Of a stretch of DNA of 64,000 nucleotides, positions 5,952 to 31,434 are shown piece by piece (position 1 is the first letter of the stretch; each line of letters opens with the position of its first letter). The position numbers were made by a program, and so were the translations under genes. The DNA comes from a virus (taxonomy: Duplodnaviria > Heunggongvirae > Uroviricota > Caudoviricetes): the IMG/VR virus record IMGVR_UViG_3300006143_000275; one strand, 5' to 3'. Under the pieces are notes generated by a model. The model saw nothing but the letters and a program-made list of their open reading frames with translations. It made no database searches and was not told the DNA's origin.

Positions 5952-5962
5952 GATCTCACCTC

Positions 5963-6421
5963 TCAGTCATACCAGCACCGTACCCCATCATCACTGATAT
6001 CGAACTCATCAGCGAAACGGAACATCATAGCAAAGTCAATAATATCCTGCTGACTTGGCGCCGTTTTCTTCCCAACACCCTCAAAAGTAATTCTGAAATC
6101 GTTCCTGTCTGGGCCAATACAGTAACCGTGAACATACCATCCGTCTGTCTCCCGCTTGCGGAGAAACTCAATAATTTCTCCGGCAGTAGGGGAGTCATTC
6201 TGGGAGTCTCTCTTATCAATAACACCAACTTCCTCAAGCTGGTCGATTTGAGAAATCGTAAGTTCGTGGAAACGTCTCAGCCCGCCGCCATATTTCTCGG
6301 ATTTGTAGTCCTCACCAAAAACAATCTGGTCGCGCTGGTCGGCAAGGCTTAATCTGAAAATATCCAACATATGTATGACCTCCTTAATACCACTCCCAGT
6401 AGACAAGCGCAGAAGTCTCAC
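5963..6421 (-). CDS. hypothetical protein
   Basis: ORF in a co-directional gene string. Confidence 0.3.
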   Translation of the reverse strand: MRLLRLSTGSGIKEVIHMLDIFRLSLADQRDQIVFGEDYKSEKYGGGLRRFHELTISQIDQLEEVGVIDKRDSQNDSPTAGEIIEFLRKRETDGWYVHGYCIGPDRNDFRITFEGVGKKTAPSQQDIIDFAMMFRFADEFDISDDGVRCWYD

Positions 6422-11806: not shown

Positions 11807-12249
11807 TTACCCCTCTTTTCTCCATAGTTCTACCGTGTATTGCTGGCCAAGAATCTTCTCAATGATTCCGAACACAACACCCCAGTTGCCTCCACCAAGA
11901 CCACATCCAATCTTGTATGGCATTGCAATCGTCTCGCCAGCAGGAACGATCTGTTTTAATTGGAGTAGACACTTTTCAAAAGCTGCATAGTCTGTGTACT
12001 GCCTTCCGTTATAACCGTACTGGTCTTGAGAAAACAGATTGCAAACAACCTGGGGATCAATATTCTTGCCATCAACAGGTGTGCGCCCTCATCGCACCTG
12101 ACCTTATACCATTTGTAAACTGTGGGGAATTTTGTCCTTATCTGCTTTGCGACGCCGCTTCCCATTTTCCCTTGGCAGTTCACTTGGTGGCAAATATAAT
12201 TTGATTTTGTAGAGAACAGGTCTCCATCAATTATTTTGATAGACATCAA
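11807..12249 (-). pseudogene. macro-domain (ADP-ribose binding/processing) gene split by a frameshift
   Basis: Frame A (11956-12249) gives the macro N-terminus IIDGDLFSTKSNYICHQVNCQGKMGSGVAKQI; frame +2 (11807-12088) gives NIDPQVVCNLF...IAMPYKIGCGLGGGNWGVVFGIIEKIL and ends 4 nt before the nadE start. Confidence 0.5.
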
Positions 12250-13772
12250 AATTCCCCTCCATGGAGATTCTGCCGAACCTCATCCAAGGTATAAATTTTG
12301 ATGAACTCCCCATTCTTGAAGACCACCCGTAATTCATTGTTCTCTTGAGCCTCAGCCCAAGTTAGGCCATCCTTATAGATGTAGTTATCACCGTTTTTGA
12401 TCACACGGCAGCAACCCCGCTGAGACTTCTTGAAGTGACCAGTGTCGGTCTTGGGATTCTTGAAAATCATGATGGGCTTGCCGTCTGCATCCTCGGCATA
12501 GGTGGCCTTAACGGCGATACCAAAGGTGTCACGGGTGTATGGTGCGTATGTCTTATTGACAACAGAGATACCGGAAACGGGATTGGGTTCACTTCGTTCC
12601 AAAGTCTCCAAGCACTGCATGGAGAAGGAACCGACGCCAAGGGAGACATTGTTAATGGCAAACCCGTTGGATTCCAGAATCTGATAGATTTGCTTGCATC
12701 GCTGGGGAGTAATGCTGTCACCATACAACGCCTTGACGTGCGGATTCAGCACTTTGAACCCCTTGCTGTTCACGGTGCCTCCAAAAATGTCCCACAGCTT
12801 GAACGCAGTCTTGGTCACGACCTCGACGGGGTCTCCACTGTCTCCACGGATAAGCAGACATCCATCGTGTGCCAGAATCTCGTCTTTGAGCTGCGGCAGG
12901 ATGTTGTCTACCAGATTCCAGTAATCGTAGCTGTCACTGACCATGGAGAAGTTCTGGTGAGGGTAAATCTCGGTCAGCAGACGGCGGATATGGGTGACCT
13001 CGTCACCGTCCATAGCGAAGTTGGAACACATCACGCTGTGTTCGGTGGACAAAGCGCCATAGGCTACCGGCTCCTTAGCACAGTCGCAGTGATAGTTGTC
13101 CTCCAGCCACAGGATTGCGGGAACAGTGGCGGTGTTCAGGAAGCTGAGACAGAAAGCGGCAGAACTTTTGGTGGCGCTCTCCACGCTCTCTTGACCACGC
13201 ATGGAAAAATCGCCAAGGAGTCTGGCGCGGACCACGCTGTCATCACAGGTGCGATCTGTAAACTCGTTGACGATTTGGCGGTAGCGATAGCCGACCTCGG
13301 CGGAAACTTGGGTGTGCCACATGGTGCAGGACAGCATGGTCTCAATGGAGTTCACCAGCCACACAAAGTTCGGATGGGTGTTGGAAATCTCAATTTGCGG
13401 CACCTTGATATTGGTACGCACACCCTCCGGCACGGCCCGAATCTCTAGGGGAAGATAGCCCAAGTCATGAAGAGCTTTCAGGCGCTTTTCTCCAACACCA
13501 TCGGTGTTGATGGTGGCGTTGAGAACCCGCTTATACTCGCTGAGGACATCCTCCCAGTCCTCTTGGAAGAAAAAGTGGTTGAAGGCATCAACGAGGTACT
13601 CCTTGATGAACGCCTGGAGGCCAAACATCGTGACCTTATCTGTGTCTCCCAGCCGGGTCATGCGGGGAGTGTAGTAGGAGACCATCTTGGTCAGGGTCTG
13701 CGGATACTGCTCTGCGTGGGCCGTCTTGTAAAAGTCCAGGCAAAGCAGTGGATTGTAGCAACAACCACTCAT
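12246..13772 (-). CDS. nadV: nicotinamide phosphoribosyltransferase (NAMPT/NadV)
   Basis: 508 aa; N-terminal LDFYKTAHAEQYPQ matches the NAMPT DSYK(V)THyKQYP signature; length typical. Confidence 0.8.
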   Translation of the reverse strand: MSGCCYNPLLCLDFYKTAHAEQYPQTLTKMVSYYTPRMTRLGDTDKVTMFGLQAFIKEYLVDAFNHFFFQEDWEDVLSEYKRVLNATINTDGVGEKRLKALHDLGYLPLEIRAVPEGVRTNIKVPQIEISNTHPNFVWLVNSIETMLSCTMWHTQVSAEVGYRYRQIVNEFTDRTCDDSVVRARLLGDFSMRGQESVESATKSSAAFCLSFLNTATVPAILWLEDNYHCDCAKEPVAYGALSTEHSVMCSNFAMDGDEVTHIRRLLTEIYPHQNFSMVSDSYDYWNLVDNILPQLKDEILAHDGCLLIRGDSGDPVEVVTKTAFKLWDIFGGTVNSKGFKVLNPHVKALYGDSITPQRCKQIYQILESNGFAINNVSLGVGSFSMQCLETLERSEPNPVSGISVVNKTYAPYTRDTFGIAVKATYAEDADGKPIMIFKNPKTDTGHFKKSQRGCCRVIKNGDNYIYKDGLTWAEAQENNELRVVFKNGEFIKIYTLDEVRQNLHGGEF

Positions 13773-13993
13773 TTCTCATCATCCTCACTTTCAACTTTCT
13801 TTCCCGCATAGTAGATTGCAAATGCAAGAGGAGCCACGATAAACCACAAAGCCATGATCCATATTGGTAGATAGTGCATATCTTCCAGGTCGCTATAGCT
13901 GTTCTTTTTATACATCAGGTAGTAGTAAAAACCGCCAAGAGAAGAACCAATCAGAATGTAAGTGATAACAATTAAAACGATTAGAAACAGCAT
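13769..13993 (-). CDS. small membrane protein
   Basis: 74 aa with two hydrophobic helices. Confidence 0.3.
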   Translation of the reverse strand: MLFLIVLIVITYILIGSSLGGFYYYLMYKKNSYSDLEDMHYLPIWIMALWFIVAPLAFAIYYAGKKVESEDDEK

Positions 13994-13995
13994 AT

Positions 13996-14163
13996 TGTCA
14001 CCTCAATAGTGAATTTTCTGGACATAACCACACTTTTTGCAACGGTATATTTCTGTGTATCCAATAGGCATATCCTGTGGAGCCCACTCAGAATAGTTGG
14101 TTACTCTCGTGATATGTTCCCACTCATGTTTGCAAAACAGCGAGCGGATATAGTTGATAAGCC
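13996..14163 (-). CDS. small Zn-ribbon protein (55 aa, not in the ORF track)
   Basis: ATG preceded by AGGAGGTG; MRWLINYIRSLFCKHEWEH...CKKCGYVQKIHY. Confidence 0.25.
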
Positions 14164-14186
14164 ATCTCATCGCGCACCTCCTATGA

Positions 14187-14987
14187 CTACTCTAATACAG
14201 CCACTTTCTCATGTTCACCACGATAGATGCTGTTTGTTGTAAATACTCGTGAAATCTGGCCATCTGTCAACACGGAGCCCTTGAAGATGGTGCTCTCACA
14301 ATGGGACACATACAGAAAAATTTCCTTTGCACCAGCTTCTTTCAGGGCAGCAGCAGTATGGGTAAACGTACCGCCACGGGAGCAAATGTCGTCCACAATA
14401 AGAACATTTCGACCGGCGACCTTCTCACTGTTGGCGAGTTCAAGCCCTTCAATTTTGCCAGTGCGCCAGTCACGGTGCTTGATACCGAACACATACTCCC
14501 GGCCCATCAGGTCGGAGTACCGCTTGGCAGCGCCCTCGTCCGGGTAGCACATCAGAACATCAGTATCGCCTGTATCAGCCATGACACGCTCAATAGCCAG
14601 ACGGATATTGTCCGCAGGCTCCTTCACGCAGATGCGGTCGATAAGCGCTGCCGCCACATTGGAATGTGGATCAAGCACTTCAACCTTACGAAAGTTGAGA
14701 GTGTTAATGAACTCGGCGAACCATTTCAGGGTGAACACCTCGTCGCCGCTCTTGACCCTGTCCATACGAGCATTGGGAATGTACGGCAAAACGAGCTCAA
14801 TATCCACACCCATCCGATTGTTCGCCCGAATGTGATGCACCAAATGCCACAGGAGCATACACTCGTGGTCGCCATCATACCGCCACTCAATACGGAACCA
14901 GACAGCGTCTTTGGTATCAAGGCGGAAGGATGTGGTCCCGTCTGGGAACTGCGTAAAGTTAACAGGGGTTCTGTTCACCAGAATCAT
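14187..14987 (-). CDS. prs: ribose-phosphate pyrophosphokinase (PRPP synthetase)
   Basis: PRPP-binding loop VLIVDDICSRGGTFTHTAAALKEAGA; about 266 aa. Confidence 0.75.
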   Translation of the reverse strand: MILVNRTPVNFTQFPDGTTSFRLDTKDAVWFRIEWRYDGDHECMLLWHLVHHIRANNRMGVDIELVLPYIPNARMDRVKSGDEVFTLKWFAEFINTLNFRKVEVLDPHSNVAAALIDRICVKEPADNIRLAIERVMADTGDTDVLMCYPDEGAAKRYSDLMGREYVFGIKHRDWRTGKIEGLELANSEKVAGRNVLIVDDICSRGGTFTHTAAALKEAGAKEIFLYVSHCESTIFKGSVLTDGQISRVFTTNSIYRGEHEKVAVLE

Positions 14988-14990
14988 GTC

Positions 14991-15539
14991 TTACTCCTCC
15001 CAGTTCTCAATGTTGATTTGACACATCTTCATGGCCTTGAGGGCATTTTCGTGGCTCTCTGGTGTCACGCCAGCGCAGCAAGCGGCATCCACCGTAATTT
15101 TGACTTCCGGCAAAAACGCTTTAAGCAGCAGCGCGTTGGAAATGACACAGATATCGGTGCAGAGGCCGACCAGGACAATCTCGTCAATATGGCTCGACAC
15201 GCTGTTTTTAATGCGCAGGTACTCGCCAAGTTCAATAGAGCCAAACGTTTTCTTTCTGAAAGTAGAAGTCCACTCCTCCTTGTCTACGATTGCATTGAAA
15301 AGCACATCAGGGGCGCACCAGCCCTCGGTCTTATCAATGCAGTGCTCAACGGGGAGCATCTTCCCTTCCTGCGTCTCCAGATAGTCCTTATCGTGGGTAT
15401 CAAAGGTTGCAAGGATCTCGCCGTCAAACTCTTCGGCTTTCGCAACAACCTTCGGCAGAATCGCCTGCGCCTCTTTGGTGCCAAGAGACCCATCAATGAA
15501 ATCGTTTTGCATATCAACAATGACCAATACCTTACTCAT
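14991..15539 (-). CDS. pncA: nicotinamidase / isochorismatase-family hydrolase
   Basis: VLVIVDMQNDF signature; start taken at the internal MSKVLVIV. Confidence 0.7.
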   Translation of the reverse strand: MSKVLVIVDMQNDFIDGSLGTKEAQAILPKVVAKAEEFDGEILATFDTHDKDYLETQEGKMLPVEHCIDKTEGWCAPDVLFNAIVDKEEWTSTFRKKTFGSIELGEYLRIKNSVSSHIDEIVLVGLCTDICVISNALLLKAFLPEVKITVDAACCAGVTPESHENALKAMKMCQINIENWEE

Positions 15540-15549
15540 ATGTACCTCC

Positions 15550-16068
15550 TTAGTTCCCCTTGTAGTAAAATTCGTGCCGGTAATCGACATGGAAATTTTC
15601 CACGCGATCATCGTCAATTTCATCACTTGTTGTTAAAACAACGCTTTTATCGGAGAATAAATAACGGAGCAGCCGCCCGCTGCTCCGAAGTATTCCGTCC
15701 ACGAACCTCAGATGATCGTCCTCACCAGCATGATCGACAAAAGCATTAACGCAATAAACGCCGCTTCCATATCTGTGATAGGTGGCCTTTTCAAACTCAC
15801 ATTGAACACCAACTTTCATCAGTTCTTCCATAATCCATGTCTTTGCGTTCTCTGCCTTTTTCATTTCATAAAGCGACAGGATACTGGAGTATAAATACGC
15901 AGCCTTATCCTCGACTGACCGCAGTTCAGCAGGCTCTCGGCCAAAATCGTCACATCGAAAATACACCTTTTCTGGATATTCTAGTTCAGCCTTCCTGTCC
16001 GTCACAATACAAATACAGTGGGTGCTGCTGGAATTGGTCTCAAACACCGAATTTCGTACTTGCCGCAT
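15550..16068 (-). CDS. FETNSSSTH-motif protein (paralog of 10720-11049)
   Basis: MRQVRNSVFETNSSSTH N-terminus; the listed ORF is over-extended upstream, start taken at M63. Confidence 0.4.
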   Translation of the reverse strand: MRQVRNSVFETNSSSTHCICIVTDRKAELEYPEKVYFRCDDFGREPAELRSVEDKAAYLYSSILSLYEMKKAENAKTWIMEELMKVGVQCEFEKATYHRYGSGVYCVNAFVDHAGEDDHLRFVDGILRSSGRLLRYLFSDKSVVLTTSDEIDDDRVENFHVDYRHEFYYKGN

Positions 16069-16241
16069 TGGTTTTCTCCTTAAACTGATATGTTGTTCGT
16101 TCTGTAATCCGTCATTACAGATGTCCAGGTGAGATGTGACTGGACATCTGAATGATGCCAAAGGACTCGCGAGCGGCGCGACTTCGTCGGCGTCAGCCGA
16201 CCTCGTCGCGCTCGCGCAGCGAGGAAACAAACAAATCCATA

Positions 16242-16266
16242 CTCCGATTAACAATACGGAGTGCCC
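16242..16266. repeat. conserved hairpin motif copy E (CTCCG-ATTAACAATA-CGGAG-TGCCC)
   Basis: Stem changed by compensatory substitutions relative to copies A-D. Confidence 0.5.
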
Positions 16267-16355
16267 GCTTTATGTATTGATTGGTTATAACAGGCGATAT
16301 ACATTACAGAACTGTCGGAATTTTCTTTTTGCAGCCTTGAAGAAGTGACGCCGAT

Positions 16356-16403
16356 GATCCAAGATCCGGGAGGATCGCCCGCGATCCGTACGGATCTTTG
16401 ATC
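16356..16403. promoter_or_regulatory. cluster of six GATC sites with 10-bp periodicity inside nested palindromes
   Basis: TGATCCAAGATCCGGGAGGATCGCCCGCGATCCGTACGGATCTTTGATCA. Confidence 0.4.
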
Positions 16404-16438
16404 ATTCGGAGGAACTTCTTTGAGCGTGTGAACGGTTA

Positions 16439-16474
16439 CCCTTGCGTTTCTCTGATTCACAATACAGAGTGCCC
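16439..16474. repeat. conserved hairpin motif copy D
   Basis: CCTTGCGTTTCTCTGATTCACAATACAGAGTGCCC. Confidence 0.5.
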
Positions 16475-16515
16475 TATGTACGCAGACTGTGGGCTAATAC
16501 GCTGCAAAATGATTA

Positions 16516-17130
16516 TTACTCCTGGAACCTGTAGTCAACTCTCTCCCAGTTCCCAGGTCTTAGATATGTGATATAGATTTTGTCAAACGCCCAAGAACCG
16601 ACATCTCCCATGCCAGCCTCTCCGCGATAATCTCCGCCTCCCATGCCATTCCCGATGCAAGTGAGAAGCGGAAGCGGGTTGATACACCACACGCCAGACA
16701 TCCCGTATCTGTCGCGGACGGAGTTCCGCCTTATGTATTCCTCTATGTCGATGTAGCACTTTTTCGTTGCATTCACCAGATAGCACCCGGCGCTGTCGAG
16801 ATCGAGCTTATATTGTGGCGTTTCCGGTGAGATATCCTGAACGCTTCTGTATTCACCCCACACGCCGTTATACTTTTCAAGGAAGGCTTCAACACTTGTG
16901 ATATATCCATCACCAAAGTTGCATCCATCCTCCACTGCATCGGTGGCATAGTCTCCCATCCATGCGATACGGGCCGGTCTGTCCTCGATTTCATGCAGCA
17001 CCGCGTTAACAAAGTTATTGCCGATCCATGAGTGCTCCATCAGCTTGAGCCCATTGTCAAATGCGTGAGAATACGCAGACCGTTCCTCTCCGTCTTCAAA
17101 AATCATCAGCGGTCTATAATACTGTCCCAT
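16516..17130 (-). CDS. hypothetical protein
   Basis: 204-aa ORF. Confidence 0.3.
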   Translation of the reverse strand: MGQYYRPLMIFEDGEERSAYSHAFDNGLKLMEHSWIGNNFVNAVLHEIEDRPARIAWMGDYATDAVEDGCNFGDGYITSVEAFLEKYNGVWGEYRSVQDISPETPQYKLDLDSAGCYLVNATKKCYIDIEEYIRRNSVRDRYGMSGVWCINPLPLLTCIGNGMGGGDYRGEAGMGDVGSWAFDKIYITYLRPGNWERVDYRFQE

Positions 17131-17570
17131 CAGCTCGCCCTCCCAAGCACAGCTATAAAGCTGTCCGTTTCAATATCCTCCTCGATGTCAGCAGGCGCAA
17201 ACCAGTCGTCGGCATCTTCATCGGTGTCTTCTTCAATATCGTCTTCGACATTTTCTTCTTCTTCATCCCACGCTTCGTTTTCGTCCATATGCCGGAGGAC
17301 TTCGTTCTTGTAGTCGTCAAATGAATAATCTGCGTCCTCATATCCGCCATATCCATCCTCGCGGTAGTAATCGCAACGAGTCGGAATGTTCGCCAGAAGG
17401 CCACGGATTTCTTCCCAGTCACGCATATTGCCGATTGTTTCCAGCAGGATTTCATTGAGGTATTCTGCATCATAAACATCGTTGCAGAGATCATCAATTC
17501 CCTCATCAACACAGAAACTGATTAGGTCGCCGAATGAGTTTACACCTTCGATAAATTCCTGACGTGTCAT
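17130..17570 (-). CDS. highly acidic small protein with a conserved C-terminal tail (DSFIAVLGRAS)
   Basis: 146 aa, D/E-rich; C-terminus matches the tail shared by six other small ORFs. Confidence 0.4.
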   Translation of the reverse strand: MTRQEFIEGVNSFGDLISFCVDEGIDDLCNDVYDAEYLNEILLETIGNMRDWEEIRGLLANIPTRCDYYREDGYGGYEDADYSFDDYKNEVLRHMDENEAWDEEEENVEDDIEEDTDEDADDWFAPADIEEDIETDSFIAVLGRAS

Positions 17571-17594
17571 GAAGAAGACCCCTTTCTGTTGAAT

Positions 17595-17669
17595 TGGTGA
17601 CCCGGACGGGAGTCGAACCCGCGTTACCAGAGTGAAGGTCTGGTGTCTTAACCGCTTGACTACCGGGCC
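17595..17669 (-). tRNA. tRNA-Glu (anticodon TTC)
   Basis: Cloverleaf read by eye; T-loop GGTTCGACTCC; encoded CCA. Confidence 0.6.
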
Positions 17670-17672
17670 GTA

Positions 17673-17748
17673 TGGTCTGAGTGGGGAGGATCGAACTCCC
17701 GGCCTCGTGATCCCAAATCACGCGCTCTGCCAACTGAGCTACACCCAG
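17673..17748 (-). tRNA. tRNA-Pro (anticodon TGG)
   Basis: Anticodon loop TTTGGGA; T-arm GGGAGTTCGATCCTCCC; CCA. Confidence 0.6.
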
Positions 17749-17752
17749 ATAT

Positions 17753-17919
17753 TGTGCGGGCGGGGATTTTCACCCCGCATAGGTAAGATTATGTACCTGC
17801 TACCGAGCTTGTCGCCCATCGGCTACTTCACCGAACCCAAACAGGAGGACAACGATGGACTCGAACCATTGTCTTACCCTACCTCTCGTTATAGCGTCTA
17901 CCTATTCCGCCACCGCACA
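17753..17919 (-). ncRNA. atypical tRNA-like element, about 167 nt, with a tRNA-Leu-type D-arm and a large internal insertion
   Basis: 5' TGTGCGG pairs perfectly with 3' CCGCACA; D-arm GTGGCGGAATAGGTAGACGC matches tRNA-Leu; internal T-arm-like GGACAACGATGGACTCGAACCATTGTC; no clean anticodon arm. Confidence 0.3.
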
Positions 17920-17935
17920 TTTTGTATTGTGTAGC

Positions 17936-17970
17936 TCTAAAAACAGGACTCCCGCAGGCGAGCGTCCCTG
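17936..17970 (-). terminator. rho-independent terminator (minus strand)
   Basis: Hairpin CAGGGACGCTCGCCTGCGGGAGTCCTG followed by TTTTT on the minus strand. Confidence 0.45.
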
Positions 17971-18039
17971 TAAACCTGCTACACTCGGTTTTGAGCGTGC
18001 CCATCCCGCAGGGCGGCGGGGTGCTCCGTGTACTTTGGA

Positions 18040-18073
18040 GCAAAGAAAAAGATCGTGCCGAGAACTACGGCAC
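18040..18073 (-). terminator. rho-independent terminator after tRNA-Gly (minus strand)
   Basis: Hairpin GTGCCGTAGTTCTCGGCAC then TCTTTTTCTTTG on the minus strand. Confidence 0.5.
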
Positions 18074-18075
18074 GC

Positions 18076-18151
18076 TGGAGTGAGAGACGGGACTTGAACC
18101 CGCAGCTTCCGACTTGGAAGGACGGCACTCTGCCAGTTGAGTTACTCCCAC
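18076..18151 (-). tRNA. tRNA-Gly (anticodon TCC)
   Basis: Anticodon loop CTTCCAA; T-arm GCGGGTTCAAGTCCCGT; CCA. Confidence 0.55.
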
Positions 18152-18154
18152 AGA

Positions 18155-18574
18155 TGGTGGAGCCGGCGGGAATCGAACCCGCGTCCGAAATTCCTACATG
18201 AGCAAGACCTTTTTACGCAATAGGTTTCCTTTTAGGTGGATGCCTTATGGCGGGGCACCAAGATGGAATCCAAATCTACCCCAGGGCGTACCAGTTAAGT
18301 ACACCTCCACCACCTTGTCTTTTTGAACAGATTACAAGGAAAACTGTTTTTCTGGCGTATCCTCGACCGCAGGTACTTACCCAGCCAGAGGTGTACCGTT
18401 TTGGAATCCTGCCGACAGTTAAGCGGCGACCCTCTCTGCCATGAAGGCGGCGAAAGCGGGATGGATCATAACAACACTCATATCATTGTCATTTCATTTT
18501 TTGTTTAGCCTTAAGGCGGTCTCTACCTGCGAATCTTACTCTCTCAGAACCCCGTCGAAACCTTTACGGCCCCG
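18155..18574 (-). ncRNA. ssrA: tmRNA (ssrA)
   Basis: 5' end GGGGCCGTAAAGGTTTCGACGGGG matches the tmRNA 5' consensus GGGGCUGAUUCUGGAUUCGACGGG; 3' end GGACGCGGGTTCGATTCCCGCCGGCTCCACCA matches the tmRNA tRNA-like 3' end; the termini pair as an acceptor stem; about 420 nt; internal short ORF ending VAA-TAA. Confidence 0.6.
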
Positions 18575-18677
18575 TAAAAGAGGCCCGGCGTATAGCCGGG
18601 CCGTTCCCCACATTGTTATAGACCGCATGGGTGCGCTGTCTTATTAAATACCATGTTTGCACGTTCCCCTTTCGGGG

Positions 18678-18753
18678 TGGAGCTGGTAACAGGAGTCGAA
18701 CCCGCGACACTCGGAGTACAAAACCGATGCTCTACCAACTGAGCTATACCAGC
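18678..18753 (-). tRNA. tRNA-Thr (anticodon TGT)
   Basis: D-arm GCTCAGTTGGTAGAGC; anticodon loop TTTGTAC; CCA. Confidence 0.55.
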
Positions 18754-18756
18754 AAA

Positions 18757-18832
18757 TGGAGCTGATGCACGGACTCGAACCGCGAACCTAAGCTTTACGA
18801 AAGCCTCGCTCTGCCATTAGAGCTACATCAGC
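18757..18832 (-). tRNA. tRNA-Thr (anticodon CGT)
   Basis: Anticodon stem AGGCT/AGCTT with loop TTCGTAA; T-arm CGCGGTTCGAGTCCGTG; CCA. Confidence 0.55.
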
Positions 18833-18836
18833 ATGT

Positions 18837-18911
18837 TGGCTGGGGTGACTGGATTCGAACCAGCGAATGAGGGAGTCAAAGTCCCTTGCCTTGCCGCTTG
18901 GCGACACCCCA
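18837..18911 (-). tRNA. tRNA-Gln (anticodon TTG)
   Basis: 5' U, 3-bp D-stem, anticodon loop CTTTGAC; CCA. Confidence 0.55.
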
Positions 18912-18916
18912 ATATT

Positions 18917-18942
18917 GGGAGCGGTCGAATTGACCGCTCCGT
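18917..18942 (-). terminator. perfect 9-bp hairpin between the metallophosphatase gene and the tRNA cluster (terminator or processing site)
   Basis: GGAGCGGTC-GAATT-GACCGCTCC. Confidence 0.35.
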
Positions 18943-18946
18943 AGGA

Positions 18947-19621
18947 CTATACAAGCATTACCTTATTGTATAAGGCAATGAATTGATCATTCATAATTTT
19001 GTCGATATGGTAGTGTCCAAAATACCAACGTTTGAACTGAAGGTCAACCATAATACGCTCCAGATAGCTTACGAGCGGATCATTTTCATACCAATCTGCA
19101 ATCATGGTCTGAATGCTTCTTGGCGCACAGTGCGTTAACACATAATCAACAGACCATCCGTTGTTATCAAGCGCGTTGATCCCCCGTTCCATCTCTTCCA
19201 TAGATGGCATTTCGTCTTTCCACCAAGAAATATGTTCTGTACGATATTCTTTGTCATGAGATCTTGCACCGCCCATCACAAAGAACCTTTGCCCGTCGAT
19301 GGTCAGAACTTGTCCTCTCTCCAGATGGTAAATATTTGGCGCTATTTCTCGGACTTTACCACCGAACTTATCTTGAAGCGAAAATTTGCGGAGGATATCA
19401 AAATTCTCATGGTTCCCATCGATCCAGAGCGTGGTGAAGTTTTTACCCGCGAGCCATTTTTTCCACCATATCTCTCGTGTAGAACCGTCCCATATGAGCC
19501 CAAAATCCCCACAGACAATTAAATAATCCTTCTTAGTGAGCGATTTTTGCATCGGGAAGTTCTTGACAGACAACTTTTTTATGTCAATGTCCGCATGAGT
19601 ATCCCCTGTCACATAGATCAT
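18947..19621 (-). CDS. calcineurin-like metallophosphoesterase (phage Ser/Thr phosphatase-like)
   Basis: GDTHAD, GDFG, GNHEN motifs. Confidence 0.6.
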   Translation of the reverse strand: MIYVTGDTHADIDIKKLSVKNFPMQKSLTKKDYLIVCGDFGLIWDGSTREIWWKKWLAGKNFTTLWIDGNHENFDILRKFSLQDKFGGKVREIAPNIYHLERGQVLTIDGQRFFVMGGARSHDKEYRTEHISWWKDEMPSMEEMERGINALDNNGWSVDYVLTHCAPRSIQTMIADWYENDPLVSYLERIMVDLQFKRWYFGHYHIDKIMNDQFIALYNKVMLV

Positions 19622-19899
19622 TTTGAACCTCCAAGCATACGCATAAAGCTGTCTTCCTCAATGTCGATGGTTCCTTCTGGTTCATACAGCCTGATCTCAT
19701 TGCGTCCAACATACCATCCAAGTCCATGCTTGCAAGTATGTCCGCAGTCGTGTCCTCTTTGGATGGGCTTACCCCAATTAACACCAATATTATCTGATAC
19801 CCTGCATACTGTGCCAAGGTCGCCTATCTTGATATCAGGATTGCCGTCTGGATGATTACGAATAGCTTCGACACAATCTCCTACTTGAAATTCCATCAC
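19618..19899 (-). CDS. small Cys/His-rich protein (HDCGHTCKHGLGWYV) with a ubiquitin-like C-terminal tail ...SFMRMLGGSK
   Basis: 93 aa; paralog of 19856-20190. Confidence 0.4.
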   Translation of the reverse strand: MMEFQVGDCVEAIRNHPDGNPDIKIGDLGTVCRVSDNIGVNWGKPIQRGHDCGHTCKHGLGWYVGRNEIRLYEPEGTIDIEEDSFMRMLGGSK

Positions 19900-20190
19900 G
19901 CTTTGTCACCCCCCCCGCACGGAGAGCGACACCAAGGAAGGAGTTCTCGTCGATATCTTCAACATCATCTTCGTACGGCCTGATATATCTCGTATGGACA
20001 TACCACCCGTGGCCGTACTCACAATTTCCGGAGCAATCATGTCCTTCACCTAATTCATTATCCCAATCGACACCAACATGATCTCCGTCAATATCGCACA
20101 CCGTTCCAGTATCGCCAACCATGATATAGTCACTCTCATCTGGGTTGTTGACGATAGCTTCTACTCGATCTCCAATTTGATACCTTGCCA
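19856..20190 (-). CDS. small Cys/His-rich protein (HDCSGNCEYGHGWYV); C-terminus ...SFLGVALRAGG reads through a G8 tract
   Basis: Start at MARYQIGDRVEA with an AAAGGGTGG ribosome-binding site; the G8 tract (plus-strand C-run 19909-19916) sits on the GG codons; one G fewer gives ...LRAGG-stop. Confidence 0.4.
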
Positions 20191-20636
20191 TGGATACCAC
20201 CCTTTCGTGAAAGTCTGGCGCAATACTTAAAACCTGTGTTTTATCCCATACATAATAGCCATACTGCATGGGATGGCAAAAGGACGCTGAACTCGGGATT
20301 TTCCACTACCTCTTATTTCAAATAAATACTCGGATCAGCGTCCTAAAGTCCTTGAAATACGCACTTTGTTGTTTGTGATCTGCATTATATCTCGGCAGGC
20401 TACGAGGAGGGCTCCCTGCATCCGGATACAGCTCCCGGTTACTGCTGTCATCTGGTTTGGAATGATGTCGTGTGTCTGTGGGTTCCTGACATCGGGTGCC
20501 GAACTCCTTGAGTCTCAGTGTGTTGGCGGGTTTGGTGACCTTTGTCCTGATGGCCCCTGTGCGGGTCGGCGCCTGAGCAGGTGGTCGTCGGCTGCCGCGG
20601 GATCTCTGATCGCACGCACTGCGGCCGCCAAGCCGT

Positions 20637-20683
20637 CATCCTCCACCCAACCATTCGTTACTCTGATTTACAATACAGAGTTT
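20637..20683. repeat. conserved hairpin motif copy A
   Basis: CATCCTCCACCCAACCATTCGTTACTCTGATTTACAATACAGAGTTT. Confidence 0.55.
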
Positions 20684-20719
20684 AAGTCTTTCGACTTAAA
20701 ATACATCGCAACAACAAAG

Positions 20720-21298
20720 TTATTTTATATGCACAATATATCGCCCGCCGGTCGGCGGCTCTTGCTCAACGACCCGAAAACCAACAGAAGAATACTGATC
20801 CCAAACCTGTCCCCAGTTGATATAGTCGGTCAGCACGTCTTTACTGAGGGTGTCAAGCATCTCGTCTGTAACACCGTGGTCAAACGGCACTTTGAGTTCA
20901 GTCGCCAGATAACAAGCTGCGGTCTCCTTTGCGTTCATCGCCCAATGAAGATCAGATATGTCCTCGAACATAAAATCGTTTTCTTTCAGCTTACGCACAA
21001 ATTCCGGATCGAACAGGTCACCAGAAGACGAAGCTTCCATCAGAACCTTCAAATAATCTTCCGTCATCCCAGGATTTTCGCTGTTGATATCATCCAGTAT
21101 ATCGTTCAATCCACTGATATCGTCGTTTCGGCTGATTGGAATGTTGGGCGTGGTGGACAGAATAATGTAATCATAATGATTCTCTAATTCTGCCCGCAGA
21201 TTACATGGCAGTACAATGACTTTGGATTCGCCGCAATCCAAATCACTGACTTCGACTGCCAGTTGAATCATATCAACCACCTCTTTCATGCTTTGCAT
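20720..21298 (-). CDS. acidic hypothetical protein
   Basis: 192 aa, D/E-rich; sits between two copies of the conserved intergenic motif, immediately downstream (minus sense) of the RT gene. Confidence 0.35.
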   Translation of the reverse strand: MQSMKEVVDMIQLAVEVSDLDCGESKVIVLPCNLRAELENHYDYIILSTTPNIPISRNDDISGLNDILDDINSENPGMTEDYLKVLMEASSSGDLFDPEFVRKLKENDFMFEDISDLHWAMNAKETAACYLATELKVPFDHGVTDEMLDTLSKDVLTDYINWGQVWDQYSSVGFRVVEQEPPTGGRYIVHIK

Positions 21299-21552
21299 AA
21301 ACTTTGTAATCTACCATAAGGGATAGGAAGCTGGCCATGGTTTCCTCCAGAGAGGTGAGTCTGGGAATGTCATCTCGTGTGTTCCCGGCTGTCCGAACTG
21401 GTGTCAGGTTTCAGGAATTTTTGTGACGGAGTTCCTGCTGATTTCCTGGCGAAATGTGCAGTTCGGTAATAGTTCCGTTCTTCGTGATGTTGGTAAGGGT
21501 GTTTAGCATCTCCTGCTGCCGTCGCGGCCGGCAGCACTGCGCAGCCTGGCAG

Positions 21553-21601
21553 GCTCCCTTCTCCCAGCCATTCGTTACTCTGATTTACAATACAGAGTGC
21601 C
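21553..21601. repeat. conserved hairpin motif copy B
   Basis: CTCCCTTCTCCCAGCCATTCGTTACTCTGATTTACAATACAGAGTGCC. Confidence 0.55.
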
Positions 21602-21643
21602 TTTTGAGGAACAAAAGGCTATACATTACAAAATTTTGCTTAT

Positions 21644-22783
21644 TTATGCGGCCAAATCCTCATGGATGGTACGCATTACGTCCGTTTGATATTTTTCGTT
21701 GTTGTACTTGATGACCTCGTCAACATACTTTTCTTCAACCATCCGGTAGTAGTTGATAAGGCCGCGCAAAACCTGAACATCGTGCAGTTCCCAGACAATT
21801 CCGTTCTTACGGTCGAGGATGTAGTTGCTGATCATTGCACGAAAACGCTGCTTGTTCTTGTGACCGATGGTGATCTCATTGTCCTTATTGAGCATGAGCC
21901 CGAGGTTCCAATTACTGCCGGCTCTGGAACCATACCTCGTCTTCTCATCCTTGATCTTGAACGGCGCATGGAAATCATCCAGCGTCTGATTGATGAAGTC
22001 GATGACCTTATTGTAGTCAAACTCTCTCCGGCTTGAAATTAGAGAGTCGTCTGCGTATCTGGTGTAAACGAACGACTGCCCGTTAAAATCACGCAGGGTA
22101 TTGTATACCTTGTGATCAAGGGGGATCATCATCAGATTTGTGAGCATCGGAGAAATCGGCGTGCCCTGCGGCAATCCGCCATGAAGAAAACAGAGGTTGA
22201 GTGCCTTGTCCAGTGCTGCTCTGCCCCGTTCTGACTTGACAATCTCGCTGAACGGGAAAATCAAAGAGAGCGAATACCGAAGGAATACCAGCGTTGTGTC
22301 CCCAAAAAAGTTCGAGAAATCCGTCTTTAAGAACCAATGACTGTCATTCCTCTGGTGACGTTTGATGGCGTCAATGGTGGAACGATTCTTAACATAGGCA
22401 AAGGCGGAGGTGTGGTACAGCGCAAACATCTTGGTCTCAAACAAAGTCTTCAGATTCCGAAGCGCCGTCATCAGTTCTGGCACAGGGGCATTGATCTCAC
22501 GCAGGCCGCCGGACTTCTTCGGAATATGGAATGTGGTATAGAGGGCTTCTCTCGGAACGGCATACAGCTCGGCATTTTGTTCGCAAAAACTCTCCAGAGC
22601 GGAGACCATACCGGCGAAATCGAACCGATCCAGAAACTGTGGCTTGAGTCGCTGTGCGAAATGCGTTCTGGTATTGGTGCTGTTTGAAGTTATCATAGAC
22701 TGCATGTTGACCTCACCAGATATGATTTCCTCAAATGATATCTGATGGTATGCAGGCGATTGCATGACGGTTATGTATGGCAT
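21644..22783 (-). CDS. reverse transcriptase (retron / group II-like RT domain, standalone)
   Basis: RT motifs YTTFHIPKKSGGLREINAP, GLPQGTPISPMLTNLMM and YTRYADDSLIS (YxDD box); 379 aa; no maturase/endonuclease or RNase H extension. Confidence 0.8.
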   Translation of the reverse strand: MPYITVMQSPAYHQISFEEIISGEVNMQSMITSNSTNTRTHFAQRLKPQFLDRFDFAGMVSALESFCEQNAELYAVPREALYTTFHIPKKSGGLREINAPVPELMTALRNLKTLFETKMFALYHTSAFAYVKNRSTIDAIKRHQRNDSHWFLKTDFSNFFGDTTLVFLRYSLSLIFPFSEIVKSERGRAALDKALNLCFLHGGLPQGTPISPMLTNLMMIPLDHKVYNTLRDFNGQSFVYTRYADDSLISSRREFDYNKVIDFINQTLDDFHAPFKIKDEKTRYGSRAGSNWNLGLMLNKDNEITIGHKNKQRFRAMISNYILDRKNGIVWELHDVQVLRGLINYYRMVEEKYVDEVIKYNNEKYQTDVMRTIHEDLAA

Positions 22784-23082
22784 ATTTTTAATACCTCCTG
22801 ATGTCTGTATTCTGGTATACAGTAGGTTGAGGAATTCAGGATGCGATGGGTACTTGAGAGCTGGGACTGAGTGCGGGCTCGGTGGGTAATCTGGTGAGTG
22901 ATTTGCGGCGGTCCGATGGTTCTTGGGGTCGCCATCTGTCTTCCTGTTTGCTGTCCGTCACCTTTCTGGTCGAGATGTCAAGAGTTCTTTGCGTATTTGG
23001 AGCAGTAGAAAACAGTTTATTTATTACCTCTTGACCTCGGTGGCGGGCAGGCGCCTTCAGATTCCGCCTCCGGGCGGGGTGT

Positions 23083-23128
23083 CCCTTCTCCCAGCCATGC
23101 GCAACTCTGATTTACAATACAGAGCACC
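23083..23128. repeat. conserved hairpin motif copy C (start of the RT leader)
   Basis: TCCCTTCTCCCAGCCATGCGCAACTCTGATTTACAATACAGAGCACC. Confidence 0.55.
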
Positions 23129-23227
23129 CTCAGAATAACTCTGAAAGTAATGCAATACAGACTATATGGAAGGGGCAGCGGCAACCAAAGCCACTGCCCC
23201 TATAGAACTATCGTAAAACGTGATGCC

Positions 23228-23899
23228 TTACACGGCGATCACGTCGAATTCAAAAGCATCCACAAGAATCATCTTGCGGAGTTTCTCGCCCTTCACGAAG
23301 TTGATGAAGTTGGCTACGCCGTAGGCAACGATCGTTCGCACCGTCGGAACAACCGACAGTGTGATATTGCAGGCAGAAACGGGCGTCGCCTCTTTTGCCT
23401 CATCATGAGAGAACGCCATGCTGTCGATAAAGTTCTCCACCATCTTCTTGTCGCTCCAGTCAGCGGCATAGTGCTGGGCGTCCGTCAGCCGCATCCGGAA
23501 GTCGAACATCCCCTTGACGAACGTGTTCTCCTTACAGGAGGTGGCGATCTCCCGGCGGAGGTCAATGTTGTCCACCGCCAGGAACACATAACCGGAGAGA
23601 CGCTGGCCTGTCCAGCCCTCTTTGACCAGCTTCAGATCGGGGGCGCAGTCCGGATTGATCTCGGTGAGATACTCAGCCAAAGCATCAACCTTGGCCTTGC
23701 CGATATCCGTATTCCGGAACATCTGGTTGGCAATGTTGTGGGCTTCTACGGTATCGAAGTCATACAGCGTGATTTTCGTAATGCCGAACCGCACCAGATT
23801 CTCAGCGACCGTGGAACCAATCGCTCCACAGCCGATGATATGAATCCGCGATTCGAGCATATCCGGCTTGAAGAATTCGTAGGACTTCGCCAAATCCAT
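23228..23899 (-). CDS. ThiF/MoeB-family E1-like adenylyltransferase
   Basis: Rossmann IHIIGCGAIGSTVAENLVRFGITKITLYDFDTVE; 223 aa. Confidence 0.7.
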   Translation of the reverse strand: MDLAKSYEFFKPDMLESRIHIIGCGAIGSTVAENLVRFGITKITLYDFDTVEAHNIANQMFRNTDIGKAKVDALAEYLTEINPDCAPDLKLVKEGWTGQRLSGYVFLAVDNIDLRREIATSCKENTFVKGMFDFRMRLTDAQHYAADWSDKKMVENFIDSMAFSHDEAKEATPVSACNITLSVVPTVRTIVAYGVANFINFVKGEKLRKMILVDAFEFDVIAV

Positions 23900-23916
23900 T
23901 GTTTGTCTCTCCTTTC

Positions 23917-24789
23917 TTACTGTCCGAGGTATAGGCGGTCATAGGGATCGTCTTCGTCGAATTGGTAGTCGGAAAAGGACCGGCCAATGCCGGTATCACC
24001 TCCGTTTACCTTCGGTTTTGTTTTGACTCCGACGACGCTCGCACCGGCCGTCGCCGCCGGCGTTGTTGTCTGACTGATGGGTGTGACGACCCGCGTCTGC
24101 GTCTGCTGATAGGTTCCCTGAAAACCGGTGACAGGCTTATAGGTTCTGTTGGTGACGATCTCCTTGGCGCTGCTGATGAAAGCCTGAAGATCCACGCCGA
24201 CATCTCCAATATACACATCAACATCTGCCGTGTCGTACAGGGTGTTGTTCTTCAGATCGAAGATGCGGACAAAGTGCTCGTACCGCTTGTTCCAGATCAT
24301 GAAGATGTAGTAGTCGTCATCGGAGATTTGCTCCAGAATCTTCTCCTGGTGAGTTGTGTCCACACCAGAGGGAGACACGCCCATATTGACGTGGCTGTGT
24401 CCTTGCATCCGGATGTTATTGAACACATCATCATCAAAGGAGTAAAGCCACGTCTGGTACGCCTCTTGATCGGTGTTGACCGTTGCGCCGGTAACAACCT
24501 GCGGGTATACCAAAATGTCGGTGATGTGGAAGATGGACGGATCCTGCTCATCACGGTGAACCACGCCGTGCCACGCGACCTCGTCGTTGAACTGCTGAAT
24601 GAGCGAGTTCATCTTGGCGAAGGCAATCGAGGACAGGTAGACAGTTGCCCGGTCGTCATCGCCCTCCCACTTGAACGTCCGGCTGTATTCCAGCTTTCCG
24701 TCAAACATCTTGGTGGACTTCACCTTTGCGATGAACTCCTCCTGAATTTTTTGCAGCAGCTCGTCCGTGAGCTTAATGGGCTTACTCAT
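23917..24789 (-). CDS. JAB/MPN (JAMM) metalloprotease-domain protein
   Basis: JAMM motif GHSHVNMGVSPSGVD (HxHx7Sx2D) with an upstream Glu; start taken at MSKPIKLTDELL. Confidence 0.65.
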   Translation of the reverse strand: MSKPIKLTDELLQKIQEEFIAKVKSTKMFDGKLEYSRTFKWEGDDDRATVYLSSIAFAKMNSLIQQFNDEVAWHGVVHRDEQDPSIFHITDILVYPQVVTGATVNTDQEAYQTWLYSFDDDVFNNIRMQGHSHVNMGVSPSGVDTTHQEKILEQISDDDYYIFMIWNKRYEHFVRIFDLKNNTLYDTADVDVYIGDVGVDLQAFISSAKEIVTNRTYKPVTGFQGTYQQTQTRVVTPISQTTTPAATAGASVVGVKTKPKVNGGDTGIGRSFSDYQFDEDDPYDRLYLGQ

Positions 24790-26275
24790 GGCTCTCCTCC
24801 TGTTCTTTTTCTTTCTTCGCCTTGACATCTTGTTCCTCCAACCACAATACGGCCTCAAACGGCGTCTTGGTCGTACCGTCGGGCATTTCGATTACCTTAC
24901 CGATCCTGTTCGAGAACAGCAACTGCGTCATCTTGCCGGTTGTTGCGCTCTCCTGAACATTGACGCTCTTTGCCGACTGAACACAAGCAGCTACCGCGCC
25001 GACATAATCCCGGTTACGCATAGATTGGCGAATTGTCGCCTCATTTCCACCAAGGCAGTGAAACGCCTGGATGTGCTGGTTCGGCGTGTGATCCATGATG
25101 ATATCCGACGGGAAATCGTATCCGCTAATCCCGGCGTACCTGCCGTTATCGAAGTTCAGCGAATATGCGGCGCAAATGCGAATCTTCATCGTCTCTTTGA
25201 CGAAAATCTCCGTCATCAGACGCTTAATGCGCTCTACCGTCATATTTTCGTTGTCACGATATTCATAGATGTAGCTACGGTTATTCTGAATGACGGACTC
25301 CGCTGCGTCAGGATCGAAGTTTGCAACCGTGGTGGTTACAATGAACTTGATTTCGCCATTGTATACGCTGACCAGATGCAGCGAATTGTTGCATAGGAAG
25401 TAGTCCAAAAGCTCGCTGCTCTCCGCGCCGCCTCCGTGTGTGATTTTATCGACCAGACCGCACTCCTGCGTTCTCAGGTCGTCCATCTGCTGGTAGTAAT
25501 TGGAGAAAGTGCTCTCCAAATCACGCATCCTGCGATCCATATCGTTGATCTGGCTGCGGACGGACTCCAGCTTCCGGCGGTCAAAGTGTGTTTCAAAGCC
25601 GGTCAACTGATTGCGGATAACCTGTGACCGGAAGTCAAACCGCTTGGCGAACTCCTGAATCTTCGTTTCATAGCTGGGGGCGTAACGCTTTGTGAGCGTC
25701 TTGACGATCTCAATCTCCTCGTCAGTCATCGGATTGGACTCGAAGTACCACGGGAAGTAGCGGGAAATCAGAGACTCCAGCATGTGCCACCGCTTCATGT
25801 TCATCTTTTCCGTGAAGATGATGGTGTTGCGGTACTCCTCGTTCACATAGACCTTGGCGCGGAACTTTGCGTCGCTCTCAATCCATGCGGACAGATCCGC
25901 CAGGAGCTTGTATCCAGAGACTGTCTTTGGAACACCTTCAACGAGTTTCTCGAAGCAGGTTGTGTTGCTCTCGTCGCTCCCCTCAAATGAATGGATGAGC
26001 AAAATGCCGGTTGAACCATCCATAATCGGAGTTCGGTTAAAGAAAGCCCTGACGCAGTCTCTCGGAGACGAGCCAGATAACTGCCCGGAACTGTAGTCTG
26101 TGCTTTTATATCGCAGTGTGATTGACTCCTCTTTCGGAACCCTGCTATACAGCAAAGCTCTCAAGGTCGCAACGAACGACTCGTCATTGCGGAACTTATC
26201 TCCGCCGATATTCGGGAATACGGTCGATGCGATCTCATTGGTGAGAGTCAGACCAGTGATTTCTTTTGAGAACAT
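24782..26275 (-). CDS. large hypothetical protein (497 aa) in the E1/JAB operon; possible E2-like region
   Basis: C-terminal DHTPNQHIQAFHC loosely resembles the UBC HPN...C catalytic motif (weak). Confidence 0.35.
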   Translation of the reverse strand: MFSKEITGLTLTNEIASTVFPNIGGDKFRNDESFVATLRALLYSRVPKEESITLRYKSTDYSSGQLSGSSPRDCVRAFFNRTPIMDGSTGILLIHSFEGSDESNTTCFEKLVEGVPKTVSGYKLLADLSAWIESDAKFRAKVYVNEEYRNTIIFTEKMNMKRWHMLESLISRYFPWYFESNPMTDEEIEIVKTLTKRYAPSYETKIQEFAKRFDFRSQVIRNQLTGFETHFDRRKLESVRSQINDMDRRMRDLESTFSNYYQQMDDLRTQECGLVDKITHGGGAESSELLDYFLCNNSLHLVSVYNGEIKFIVTTTVANFDPDAAESVIQNNRSYIYEYRDNENMTVERIKRLMTEIFVKETMKIRICAAYSLNFDNGRYAGISGYDFPSDIIMDHTPNQHIQAFHCLGGNEATIRQSMRNRDYVGAVAACVQSAKSVNVQESATTGKMTQLLFSNRIGKVIEMPDGTTKTPFEAVLWLEEQDVKAKKEKEQEESHE

Positions 26276-31348: not shown

Positions 31349-31434
31349 AGAGAGTGGTGGGAATCGAACCCACGCAGCGCATATCCGGTTGACAGGCATG
31401 TATCTGCCCCGCTCTGCCACTGAGCTACACTCTC
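31349..31434 (-). tRNA. tRNA of uncertain identity (about 86 nt) with an apparently 8-nt anticodon loop and a long variable region
   Basis: Canonical acceptor, D-arm (GCTCAGTGGCAGAGC) and T-arm (GTGGGTTCGATTCCCAC); best anticodon stem GGCAG/CTGTC encloses ATACATGC; no encoded CCA. Confidence 0.35.

Follow-up and report, generated by a model that had tools for sequence, protein, structure and literature searches.

Retrons are bacterial anti-phage systems in which each reverse transcriptase (RT) works with one non-coding RNA (ncRNA). The retron ncRNA has complementary 5′ and 3′ ends, short stem-loops in its msr part, a long hairpin in its msd part, and a branching G whose 2′-OH primes reverse transcription (PMC8632793; PMC7736814). 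Retron RTs carry the signatures VTG in RT7 and NAXXH between RT2 and RT3, of which the G and the H are the most conserved residues (PMC7736814). Engineered arrays of retron ncRNAs, termed multitrons, are reverse-transcribed by a single RT (bioRxiv 10.1101/2023.07.17.549397). Here, we analyzed a stretch of 64,000 nucleotides (the window) from the Caudoviricetes record IMGVR_UViG_3300006143_000275, in which five copies of a hairpin motif lie between genes. Each copy belongs to a discrete RNA structure on the sense strand that is closed by pairing between its two ends, and one of these structures is the leader of an RT gene that is assigned to the retron clade by its sequence. By analogy with retrons, the locus is probably a phage retron-type system, in which one RT (21644-22783) would serve five ncRNA units inside a polycistronic accessory-gene cluster. 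We know of no earlier description of a natural “retron array”. Full-text literature searches, whose limited coverage means that absence is not proof, returned neither a phage-encoded retron nor a retron with multiple ncRNAs.

Five motif copies belong to structured RNA units

The motif CTCYG-TATTGTNAAT-CRGAG occurs five times in the window, always on the minus strand. Since all genes from 1 to about 40.7 kb lie on this strand, it is the preferred reading direction for the element. A scan with the 20-nt core CTCTGATTTACAATACAGAG (plus strand, up to three mismatches) placed the copies at 16242, 16450, 20661, 21578 and 23105, where none were expected from 100 shuffles, and a looser pattern for the loop added just one site, at chance level. 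A covariance model (CM) built from related units recovered exactly these five copies from the 64-kb window, each of them on the minus strand, including two (units A and B) that were not in its seed. The five copies listed in the first-pass annotation of this DNA were thus confirmed by both the core scan and the CM, as were its stems: the copy at 16242 has CTCCG/CGGAG, and the other four have CTCTG/CAGAG. The long left flank that it had attributed to the motif is present in three copies (CCAGCCATKCG..ACTCYG at 20647, 21564 and 23091) and absent from the other two.

In the sense direction, the element reads as a first hairpin (hp1), the motif hairpin CTCTG-TATTGTAAAT-CAGAG (hp2), the sequence TAACGAATGGCTGGGAGAAGG, a stretch free of open reading frames (ORFs), and a gene. 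Hp2 is the most conserved part of a structured RNA unit of 183-360 nt. From 5′ to 3′, the unit comprises a segment of 7-16 nt (a1), an invariant G, hp1, which is variable in sequence, hp2, the tail TAACGAATGGCTGGGAGGA, a variable region, a second G, and a segment (a2) that is complementary to a1, such that a closing helix of 7-16 bp joins both ends of the unit. Unconstrained minimum free energy (MFE) folds recovered a1/a2, hp1 and hp2 in all five units of the window. The hairpin had been described as a 5-bp stem with a 10-nt loop. The stem is real, with 5-6 bp, but the presumed loop resolves into a 3-bp helix (AUU/AAU) that is capped by a GUN triloop and set off from the stem by a bulged U. 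The variable region between the tail and a2 forms long hairpins in the short units: units A and B and their relatives contain msd-stem-like hairpins beside a2, unrelated to each other in sequence and with up to 28 perfect base pairs (the 28-bp stem is in the related contig L003).

The units are wedged between ORFs. Unit D starts 7 nt past the RT stop codon, unit C on the last base of the upstream stop codon, unit B 6 nt past the upstream stop codon, and unit A 14 nt past the end of unit B. The distance from a2 to the next ATG is 19 nt for unit E (the RT start at 22783, on the same strand), 27 nt for unit A (16071) and approximately 30 nt for unit D (likely start 21271). Unit C is the exception, with approximately 170 nt between a2 and the ATG at 20193; in its relatives, a different gene lies directly after the unit. 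The interval between unit C and its gene (20195-20362, minus strand) contains a possible 21-codon ORF with a good Shine-Dalgarno sequence (AAGAGG-N5-GTG). The motif marks gene-cassette boundaries, as had been proposed. Each copy indeed follows a small hairpin and precedes an ORF-free stretch, but the copy at 16450 leads to the next unit and not to a gene. The leaders had been described as GC-rich and 300-450 nt long, whereas their GC content is moderate (0.46-0.52) and the copies at 16242 and 16450 lie in short units (214 and 183 nt).

Two coding explanations for the leaders were tried and rejected. ORFs that begin at the conserved ATGG of the tail range from 3 to 68 codons and share no conserved peptide, and, for recoded ORFs, every frame has stops. 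A search for antisense targets of the leaders gave no matches within the window.

Conservation and covariation of the fold

When 22 whole leaders were aligned, a 3′ box, TGTA-G-ATTACAG, stood out as conserved 15-30 nt upstream of the Shine-Dalgarno sequence. Its complement, the 5′ box CTGTAAT-G-CAT, precedes hp1, and the sequences of the two covary, as TGTAAT/ATTACA, TGTATT/AATACA and TGTGAT/ATCACA, as TTTG../..CAAA versus TCTG../..CAGA, and as TTTTGCAGC/GCTGCAAAA in the tandem units. A second candidate long-range helix, in which the tail would pair with sequence preceding a2, was inconsistent across units on inspection of the same alignment. RNAduplex-type searches for a1/a2 were too permissive, and exact-helix tests were used instead. 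The 7 nt before the invariant G, a position set by the alignment and independent of the 3′ end, were sought as a reverse complement within the next 380 nt. This exact complement was found in 41 of 46 units, with a G before it every time, and the remaining five units had one mismatch. The pairing rate between non-cognate arms was 4.1%, and 17 different a1 heptamers were represented. The G after a1 is invariant in all 36 aligned units (alignment column 9) and in all 46 tested units.

From 36 diverse units, RNAalifold independently predicted hp1 (6 bp) and hp2 (6 bp, a 1-nt bulge, 3 bp and a triloop). Double compensatory changes were seen in 12 of the 15 pairs of these hairpins, and 93.3% of cells were paired, compared with 69% in shuffled alignments and 30-48% in controls with slid partners. 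The covariation score was 0.83, versus 0.33 after shuffling. For 92 distinct model-aligned units, the proportion of paired hp1/hp2 cells was 94.9%, a value that leans toward structure because that alignment was fitted to the CM. Read on the sense strand, the 36-unit alignment contains 55 G-U/U-G cells and 12 C-A/A-C cells. This wobble bias indicates that the structure belongs to the sense strand, that is, to RNA. Related copies carry the hp2 stems CTCTG/CAGAG, CTCCG/CGGAG, CTTTG/CAAAG, CTTCG/CGAAG and CTCTG/CGGAG, the last of which can pair (through U-G) on the sense strand only, and in other clades the inner helix is GCC/GGC, GCU/AGC, ACU/AGU or GCG/CGC. The earlier suggestion of a functional hairpin preserved by compensatory change is therefore borne out by the covariation in related units; the alignment, folding and CM search of further sequences that had been recommended as checks yielded additional copies with covariation.

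The reverse transcriptase and its linkage to the units

The sequence of the window RT places it in the retron clade. PADLOC models assigned it to RT_II-A (6e-47) and RT_I-A (1e-38), and its best sequence matches in the PDB are full-length matches to retron RTs, namely 22et (“Retron”), Ec83 and Ec78/St85-family entries. Of the two retron signatures, it retains the most conserved residues, G in VTG and H in NAXXH, neither of which varies among 12 relatives.

Scanning viral, metagenome and genome collections for the motif pattern gave approximately 60 true copies in related contigs, the remainder being chance matches in coding DNA. Host labels from metagenome-assembled genomes (Bacteroides, Anaeroplasmataceae) were attached to short contigs and were not trusted. 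The copies occupy orthologous positions: before the RT, before a 192-aa acidic protein, before a metallophosphoesterase, macrodomain or SH3-like gene, and as a tandem pair before the gene for a protein named here by its motif FETNSSSTH. Relatives of the RT with 45-85% identity were present in at least 212 IMG/VR stretches, mostly contigs of 60-150 kb. Thus, the system is not a one-off. Almost all of the RT relatives examined have a unit upstream of the RT, with a1 and its G, hp1, hp2, a TAACAAATTG.. tail, and the second G and a2; these units measure 285-350 nt, and a2 ends 22-31 nt from the ATG.

The CM, built from the 36 units, gave 155 matches in 61 RT loci, every one on the RT strand, with at least one unit in 58 of the 61 loci and at least two in 52. 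The commonest pattern consists of three units, with a tandem pair directly after the RT and a single unit approximately 300 nt before it. The sequence of hp2 varies between RT clades. Within a genome it is identical in 37 of 52 loci, and compensatory changes are seen elsewhere. Head-to-tail units with no gene between them were observed in contigs L198-L202 (approximately 5237-6030), in L160 (5171-5750) and in the window (16099-16509), which indicates that the array can grow by unit duplication alone. Three hp2-like copies were found by BLAST in L198.

The Ec86/Eco1 ncRNA, whose sequence was found with 100% identity in 48 E. coli genomes beside a gene annotated “retron St85 family effector protein”, has the layout a1 (TGCGCACCCTTA), G, interior, G, a2 (TAAGGGTGCGCA). 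The phage units have the same arrangement of a1, G, G and a2; a role of their G as a 2′-5′ branch point is suggested only by this analogy.

A retron-type reading and its alternatives

Taken together, we consider it likely that each motif copy is the conserved second stem-loop of a retron-type ncRNA unit that is equivalent to msr-msd. By analogy with retrons, the cluster would be transcribed as a polycistronic RNA, and the RT would bind the hp2/tail region of each unit, prime from the 2′-OH of the G after a1, and copy the variable msd-like region from just 5′ of the G preceding a2, generating one multicopy single-stranded DNA (msDNA) per unit. The likeliest roles for these putative msDNAs are that each partners the protein encoded just downstream, as retron msDNA-RT complexes control effectors, or that reverse transcription and RNase H processing are coupled to the expression of accessory or anti-defence genes. 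There is about an even chance that natural retron arrays are carried by large phages of a widespread family and that the several msDNAs of such an array serve the virus, by partnering or controlling downstream proteins or as decoy or regulatory single-stranded DNAs, and do not act in single-template bacterial abortive infection.

Several observations weigh against the retron-type reading. Everything past the RNA fold, that is, the transcript, the branch point and the msDNA, is drawn by analogy with retrons. In the long units E, D and C, the variable region of approximately 230 nt is multi-branched, without a single long msd hairpin, and the folding z-score of unit E is only -1.7. No leader matched Rfam, including the retron msr families, even at E<=5, and only tRNAs and the transfer-messenger RNA (tmRNA) in the window passed the gathering thresholds. 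The RT scored 175 bits against NCBIfam retron_St85_RT, under the cut-off of 235, and has NLG in place of the canonical VTG (motif 7) and AIKRH in place of NAXXH (region X). The proteins downstream of units (the 192-aa protein, the SH3-like pair, the metallophosphoesterase and the FETNSSSTH protein) matched no PADLOC or retron effector model. Finally, the unit-bearing contigs L019 and L024 are covered in part only, and the presence of an RT there could not be checked.

The main rival is that the units are RT-independent, cis-acting leader RNAs (insulators, processing sites, stabilisers or translational control elements), with hp2 and the tail read by a host or phage RNA-binding protein or RNase, and the RT as mere cargo. 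This would suit the precise placement of the units between ORFs, with a2 approximately 20-30 nt from the next ribosome-binding site, the fact that most units precede genes other than the RT, the lack of a single msd-like hairpin in the long units, and the fact that reverse transcription of the units is proposed by analogy. However, it gives no role to the G after a1 or to the G before a2, which together reproduce the Ec86 layout, and helices of 7-16 bp are short for an RNase III substrate. Nor would it lead one to expect units beside a retron-clade RT in 58 of 61 loci, with one unit directly upstream of the RT. We regard this explanation as unlikely. An RNA processing or recombination site, two of the roles first suggested for the motif, may exist as a secondary consequence, but would leave the a1/a2 helix with its flanking Gs and the strict RT linkage unexplained.

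The inverted repeats at the unit ends and the occurrence of tandem units could also suggest MITE-like, non-autonomous mobile elements, whose terminal inverted repeats would be a1/a2, or cassette-shuffling recombination modules that resemble PeSL. PeSL cassettes of T4-type phages, reportedly described by Arbiol et al. in 2010, are said to pair an early promoter with a terminator and to drive recombination. The gene after C-type units does vary in the relatives, between the SH3-like pair, a macrodomain and a metallophosphoesterase, and the units may for that reason mark exchange points. On the other hand, no target-site duplications were found beside a1/a2, and the unit interiors are unrelated within a genome, yet the units occupy orthologous positions across relatives. 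The pairwise covariation of a1 and a2, which includes a U-G pair, is not expected from selection on ends bound by a transposase. Mobile elements or recombination modules are thus a very unlikely explanation.

The favored idea of the first-pass annotation was a duplex DNA site, serving either as a promoter that a phage polymerase or sigma factor uses or as an operator to which a dimeric regulator binds. There is precedent in SPBRE, a 15-bp duplex DNA site at about ten SPbeta promoters that is bound by the MrpR repressor (PMC10516654), and here, too, an element recurs between genes, in a phage with a portal similar to the portals of large Firmicutes phages. The loop also contains TATTGT, a passable -10 hexamer. 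However, no sigma-70-like -35/-10 match was present at any motif copy, and a promoter and terminator scan of the window returned nothing at the motif except the terminator-like hp1 of units D and E. Different stem sequences coexist in one genome, with wobbles that work on one strand only, and the hairpin lies inside a larger fold whose closing-helix arms are 160-340 nt apart. Inter-gene promoters are unlikely because the units are wedged between ORFs, with C, D and B beginning 0-7 nt from the upstream stop codons, and none were predicted. A link to a YonO-like polymerase or a sigma-like regulator is not supported either, as the part of the window near the late, structural genes has no motif copy; published work has yet to define the YonO promoter (PMC5467207). 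We consider a duplex DNA site highly improbable. The polymerase meant was presumably the 918-aa protein encoded at 44006-46762 (plus strand), which has strong PHROG matches of unknown function and a weak C-terminal GGDEF-like match, and which had no match in Pfam or PDB sequence searches.

A diversity-generating retroelement (DGR), with the leaders as its template repeats, has next to no probability: an RT beside a non-coding, A-rich region would fit, but this RT matches retron families and not DGR RTs, and the window holds no second leader copy resembling a variable repeat, only chance 11-12-mers.

Genomic context

The window is part of a large phage, with 12 tRNAs, a tmRNA, a terminase and a portal that is most similar to the portals of large Firmicutes phages. 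A DNA search against cultured phages returned tRNA matches only, indicating that there is no annotated cultured relative at the DNA level. The coordinates of the units and of the surrounding genes are collected in Table 1.

Table 1 Structured RNA units and associated genes in the 64-kb window.
Feature	Position	Strand	Size	Context	5′ part	3′ part	Evidence
Unit E	22803..23162	-	360 nt	RT-gene leader	a1 GTCTGTATT 23154-23162; G 23153; hp1 23126-23148; hp2 23105-23124; tail 23080-23104	G 22812; a2 AATACAGAC 22803-22811; RT ATG at 22783	MFE fold; CM 69 bits
Unit D	21303..21632	-	330 nt	Leader of acidic 192-aa gene	a1 TTTGTAAT 21625-21632 (extendable to 21636, one U-G pair); G 21624; hp1 21599-21619; hp2 21578-21597; tail 21553-21577	G 21311; a2 ATTACAAA 21303-21310	MFE fold; CM 82 bits
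Unit C	20363..20720	-	358 nt	Upstream of SH3-like small-protein pair	a1 20705-20720 (16 nt; one mismatch and one bulge versus a2); G 20704; hp1 ~20682-20699; hp2 20661-20680	G 20380; a2 20363-20379	MFE fold; CM 71 bits
Unit B	16327..16509	-	183 nt	Unit A directly after	a1 TTTTGCAGC 16501-16509; G 16500; hp1 16471-16494; hp2 16450-16469	Long imperfect msd-like hairpin ~16336-16424; G 16336; a2 GCTGCAAAA 16327-16335	MFE fold; CM 19.5 bits, E 0.029; not in seed
Unit A	16099..16312	-	214 nt	Leader of FETNSSSTH gene	a1 GTTCTGTAAT 16303-16312; G 16302; hp1 16263-16295; hp2 16242-16261 (CTCCG/CGGAG)	Long hairpins ~16167-16223 and ~16112-16156; G 16109; a2 ATTACAGAAC 16099-16108	MFE fold; CM 29.7 bits, E 2e-4; not in seed
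Retron-clade RT (by sequence)	21644..22783	-	379 aa	Behind unit E			Pfam RVT_1; YADD intact
Acidic protein	20720..21298	-	192 aa	Downstream of unit D; likely true start 21271			Syntenic in relatives
FETNSSSTH protein	15550..16071	-	173 aa	Downstream of units B and A			phrog_28997; conserved in relatives
ThiF/E1-like adenylyltransferase and weak JAB-like protein	23228-24858	-		Immediately upstream of unit E			
Nicotinamidase/isochorismatase-like, ribose-phosphate diphosphokinase-like (266 aa) and phosphoribosyltransferase (508 aa) genes	12246-15626	-		Directly downstream of FETNSSSTH gene			

The acidic 192-aa protein had no family match, and the FETNSSSTH protein, whose structure was predicted confidently (pLDDT 91), had no fold match in the PDB. 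CBASS Cap2-type models match the ThiF/E1-like adenylyltransferase through their E1 part, and the gene order ThiF, unit, RT is kept in all relatives with enough flanking sequence. A GC-rich 11-bp hairpin without a U-tract (GGGGCAGTGGC...GCCGCTGCCCC; 23168-23198, minus strand) lies in the gap that separates the stop codon of ThiF from a1 of unit E, and may serve in termination, in processing or in protection. At the other end of the cluster, the 508-aa phosphoribosyltransferase, called NAMPT-like, matches the nicotinate phosphoribosyltransferase model NF006629 of NCBIfam with 452 bits, and the synteny of these NAD-salvage genes is kept in the related contigs L007 and L180. We take the trio of genes to resemble the phage NAD+-reconstitution (NARP1-type) counter-defence pathway. 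An accessory or anti-defence setting is suggested by the neighbors of the units, namely the NAD-salvage genes downstream of unit A, the macrodomain and phosphoesterase genes behind C-type units in relatives, and, upstream of unit E, the genes of ThiF/E1-like and JAB-like proteins.

The tmRNA (18155-18573, minus strand; Rfam 96 bits; tag peptide AVEDTPEKQFSL*) lies inside a tRNA cluster at 17595-18911. This phage-encoded tmRNA sits amid six tRNA genes, with the unit-C cassette on one side and the unit-B/A cassette on the other. Elsewhere in the window (31349-31434, minus strand), ARAGORN called a tRNA with a four-base anticodon (acat) and an undetermined amino acid, which scores 46 bits against the Rfam tRNA model and may be a frameshift-suppressor-like tRNA or a mis-call.

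Comparison with known systems

If the retron-type reading is correct, retron arrays exist in nature and viruses themselves use retron-type reverse transcription, through a phage RT with three to five cognate ncRNAs. The units, welded to different accessory genes, would then offer a handle on msDNA roles beyond toxin guarding, and multiplexed genome editing with retrons would gain a ready-made set of ncRNA scaffolds that are compatible with each other. The reading would also explain why a compact phage genome has approximately 1.4 kb of non-coding sequence, which is puzzling otherwise.

The closest described systems are the retrons Ec86/Eco1 and the St85 family (II-A, I-A). They share with the phage locus the RT clade, an ncRNA directly upstream on the same strand, an ORF a few tens of nucleotides after a2, and the order of two short stem-loops followed by a variable region with long hairpins. 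They differ in having one ncRNA, whereas the phage system has five units per RT (two to four elsewhere), which also precede non-RT genes and also occur in tandem. The phage system is carried by a phage family (viral contigs of 60-150 kb) beside tRNA, tmRNA and NAD-salvage genes, and not in a bacterial defence island. Its RT has NLG for VTG and AIKRH for NAXXH, its long units (330-360 nt) do not have a single msd hairpin, and no effector is recognizable.

The other parallels are more distant. SPBRE/MrpR of SPbeta is similarly a conserved element that is repeated across intergenic regions of a large Firmicutes-type phage, but it is a duplex site, in contrast to a strand-specific folded RNA of 183-360 nt that is linked to an RT. 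PeSL cassettes, by report, are also conserved stem-loop modules in intergenic regions beside variable accessory genes, but are said to have neither a long-range closing helix nor an RT. Multitrons (bioRxiv 10.1101/2023.07.17.549397) resemble the proposed arrangement in combining several ncRNA units, one transcript and one RT. They are synthetic, whereas the phage array is apparently natural and each of its units has its own a1/a2 and its own downstream gene. Since multitrons work with one RT, the arrangement proposed for the phage is mechanistically plausible.

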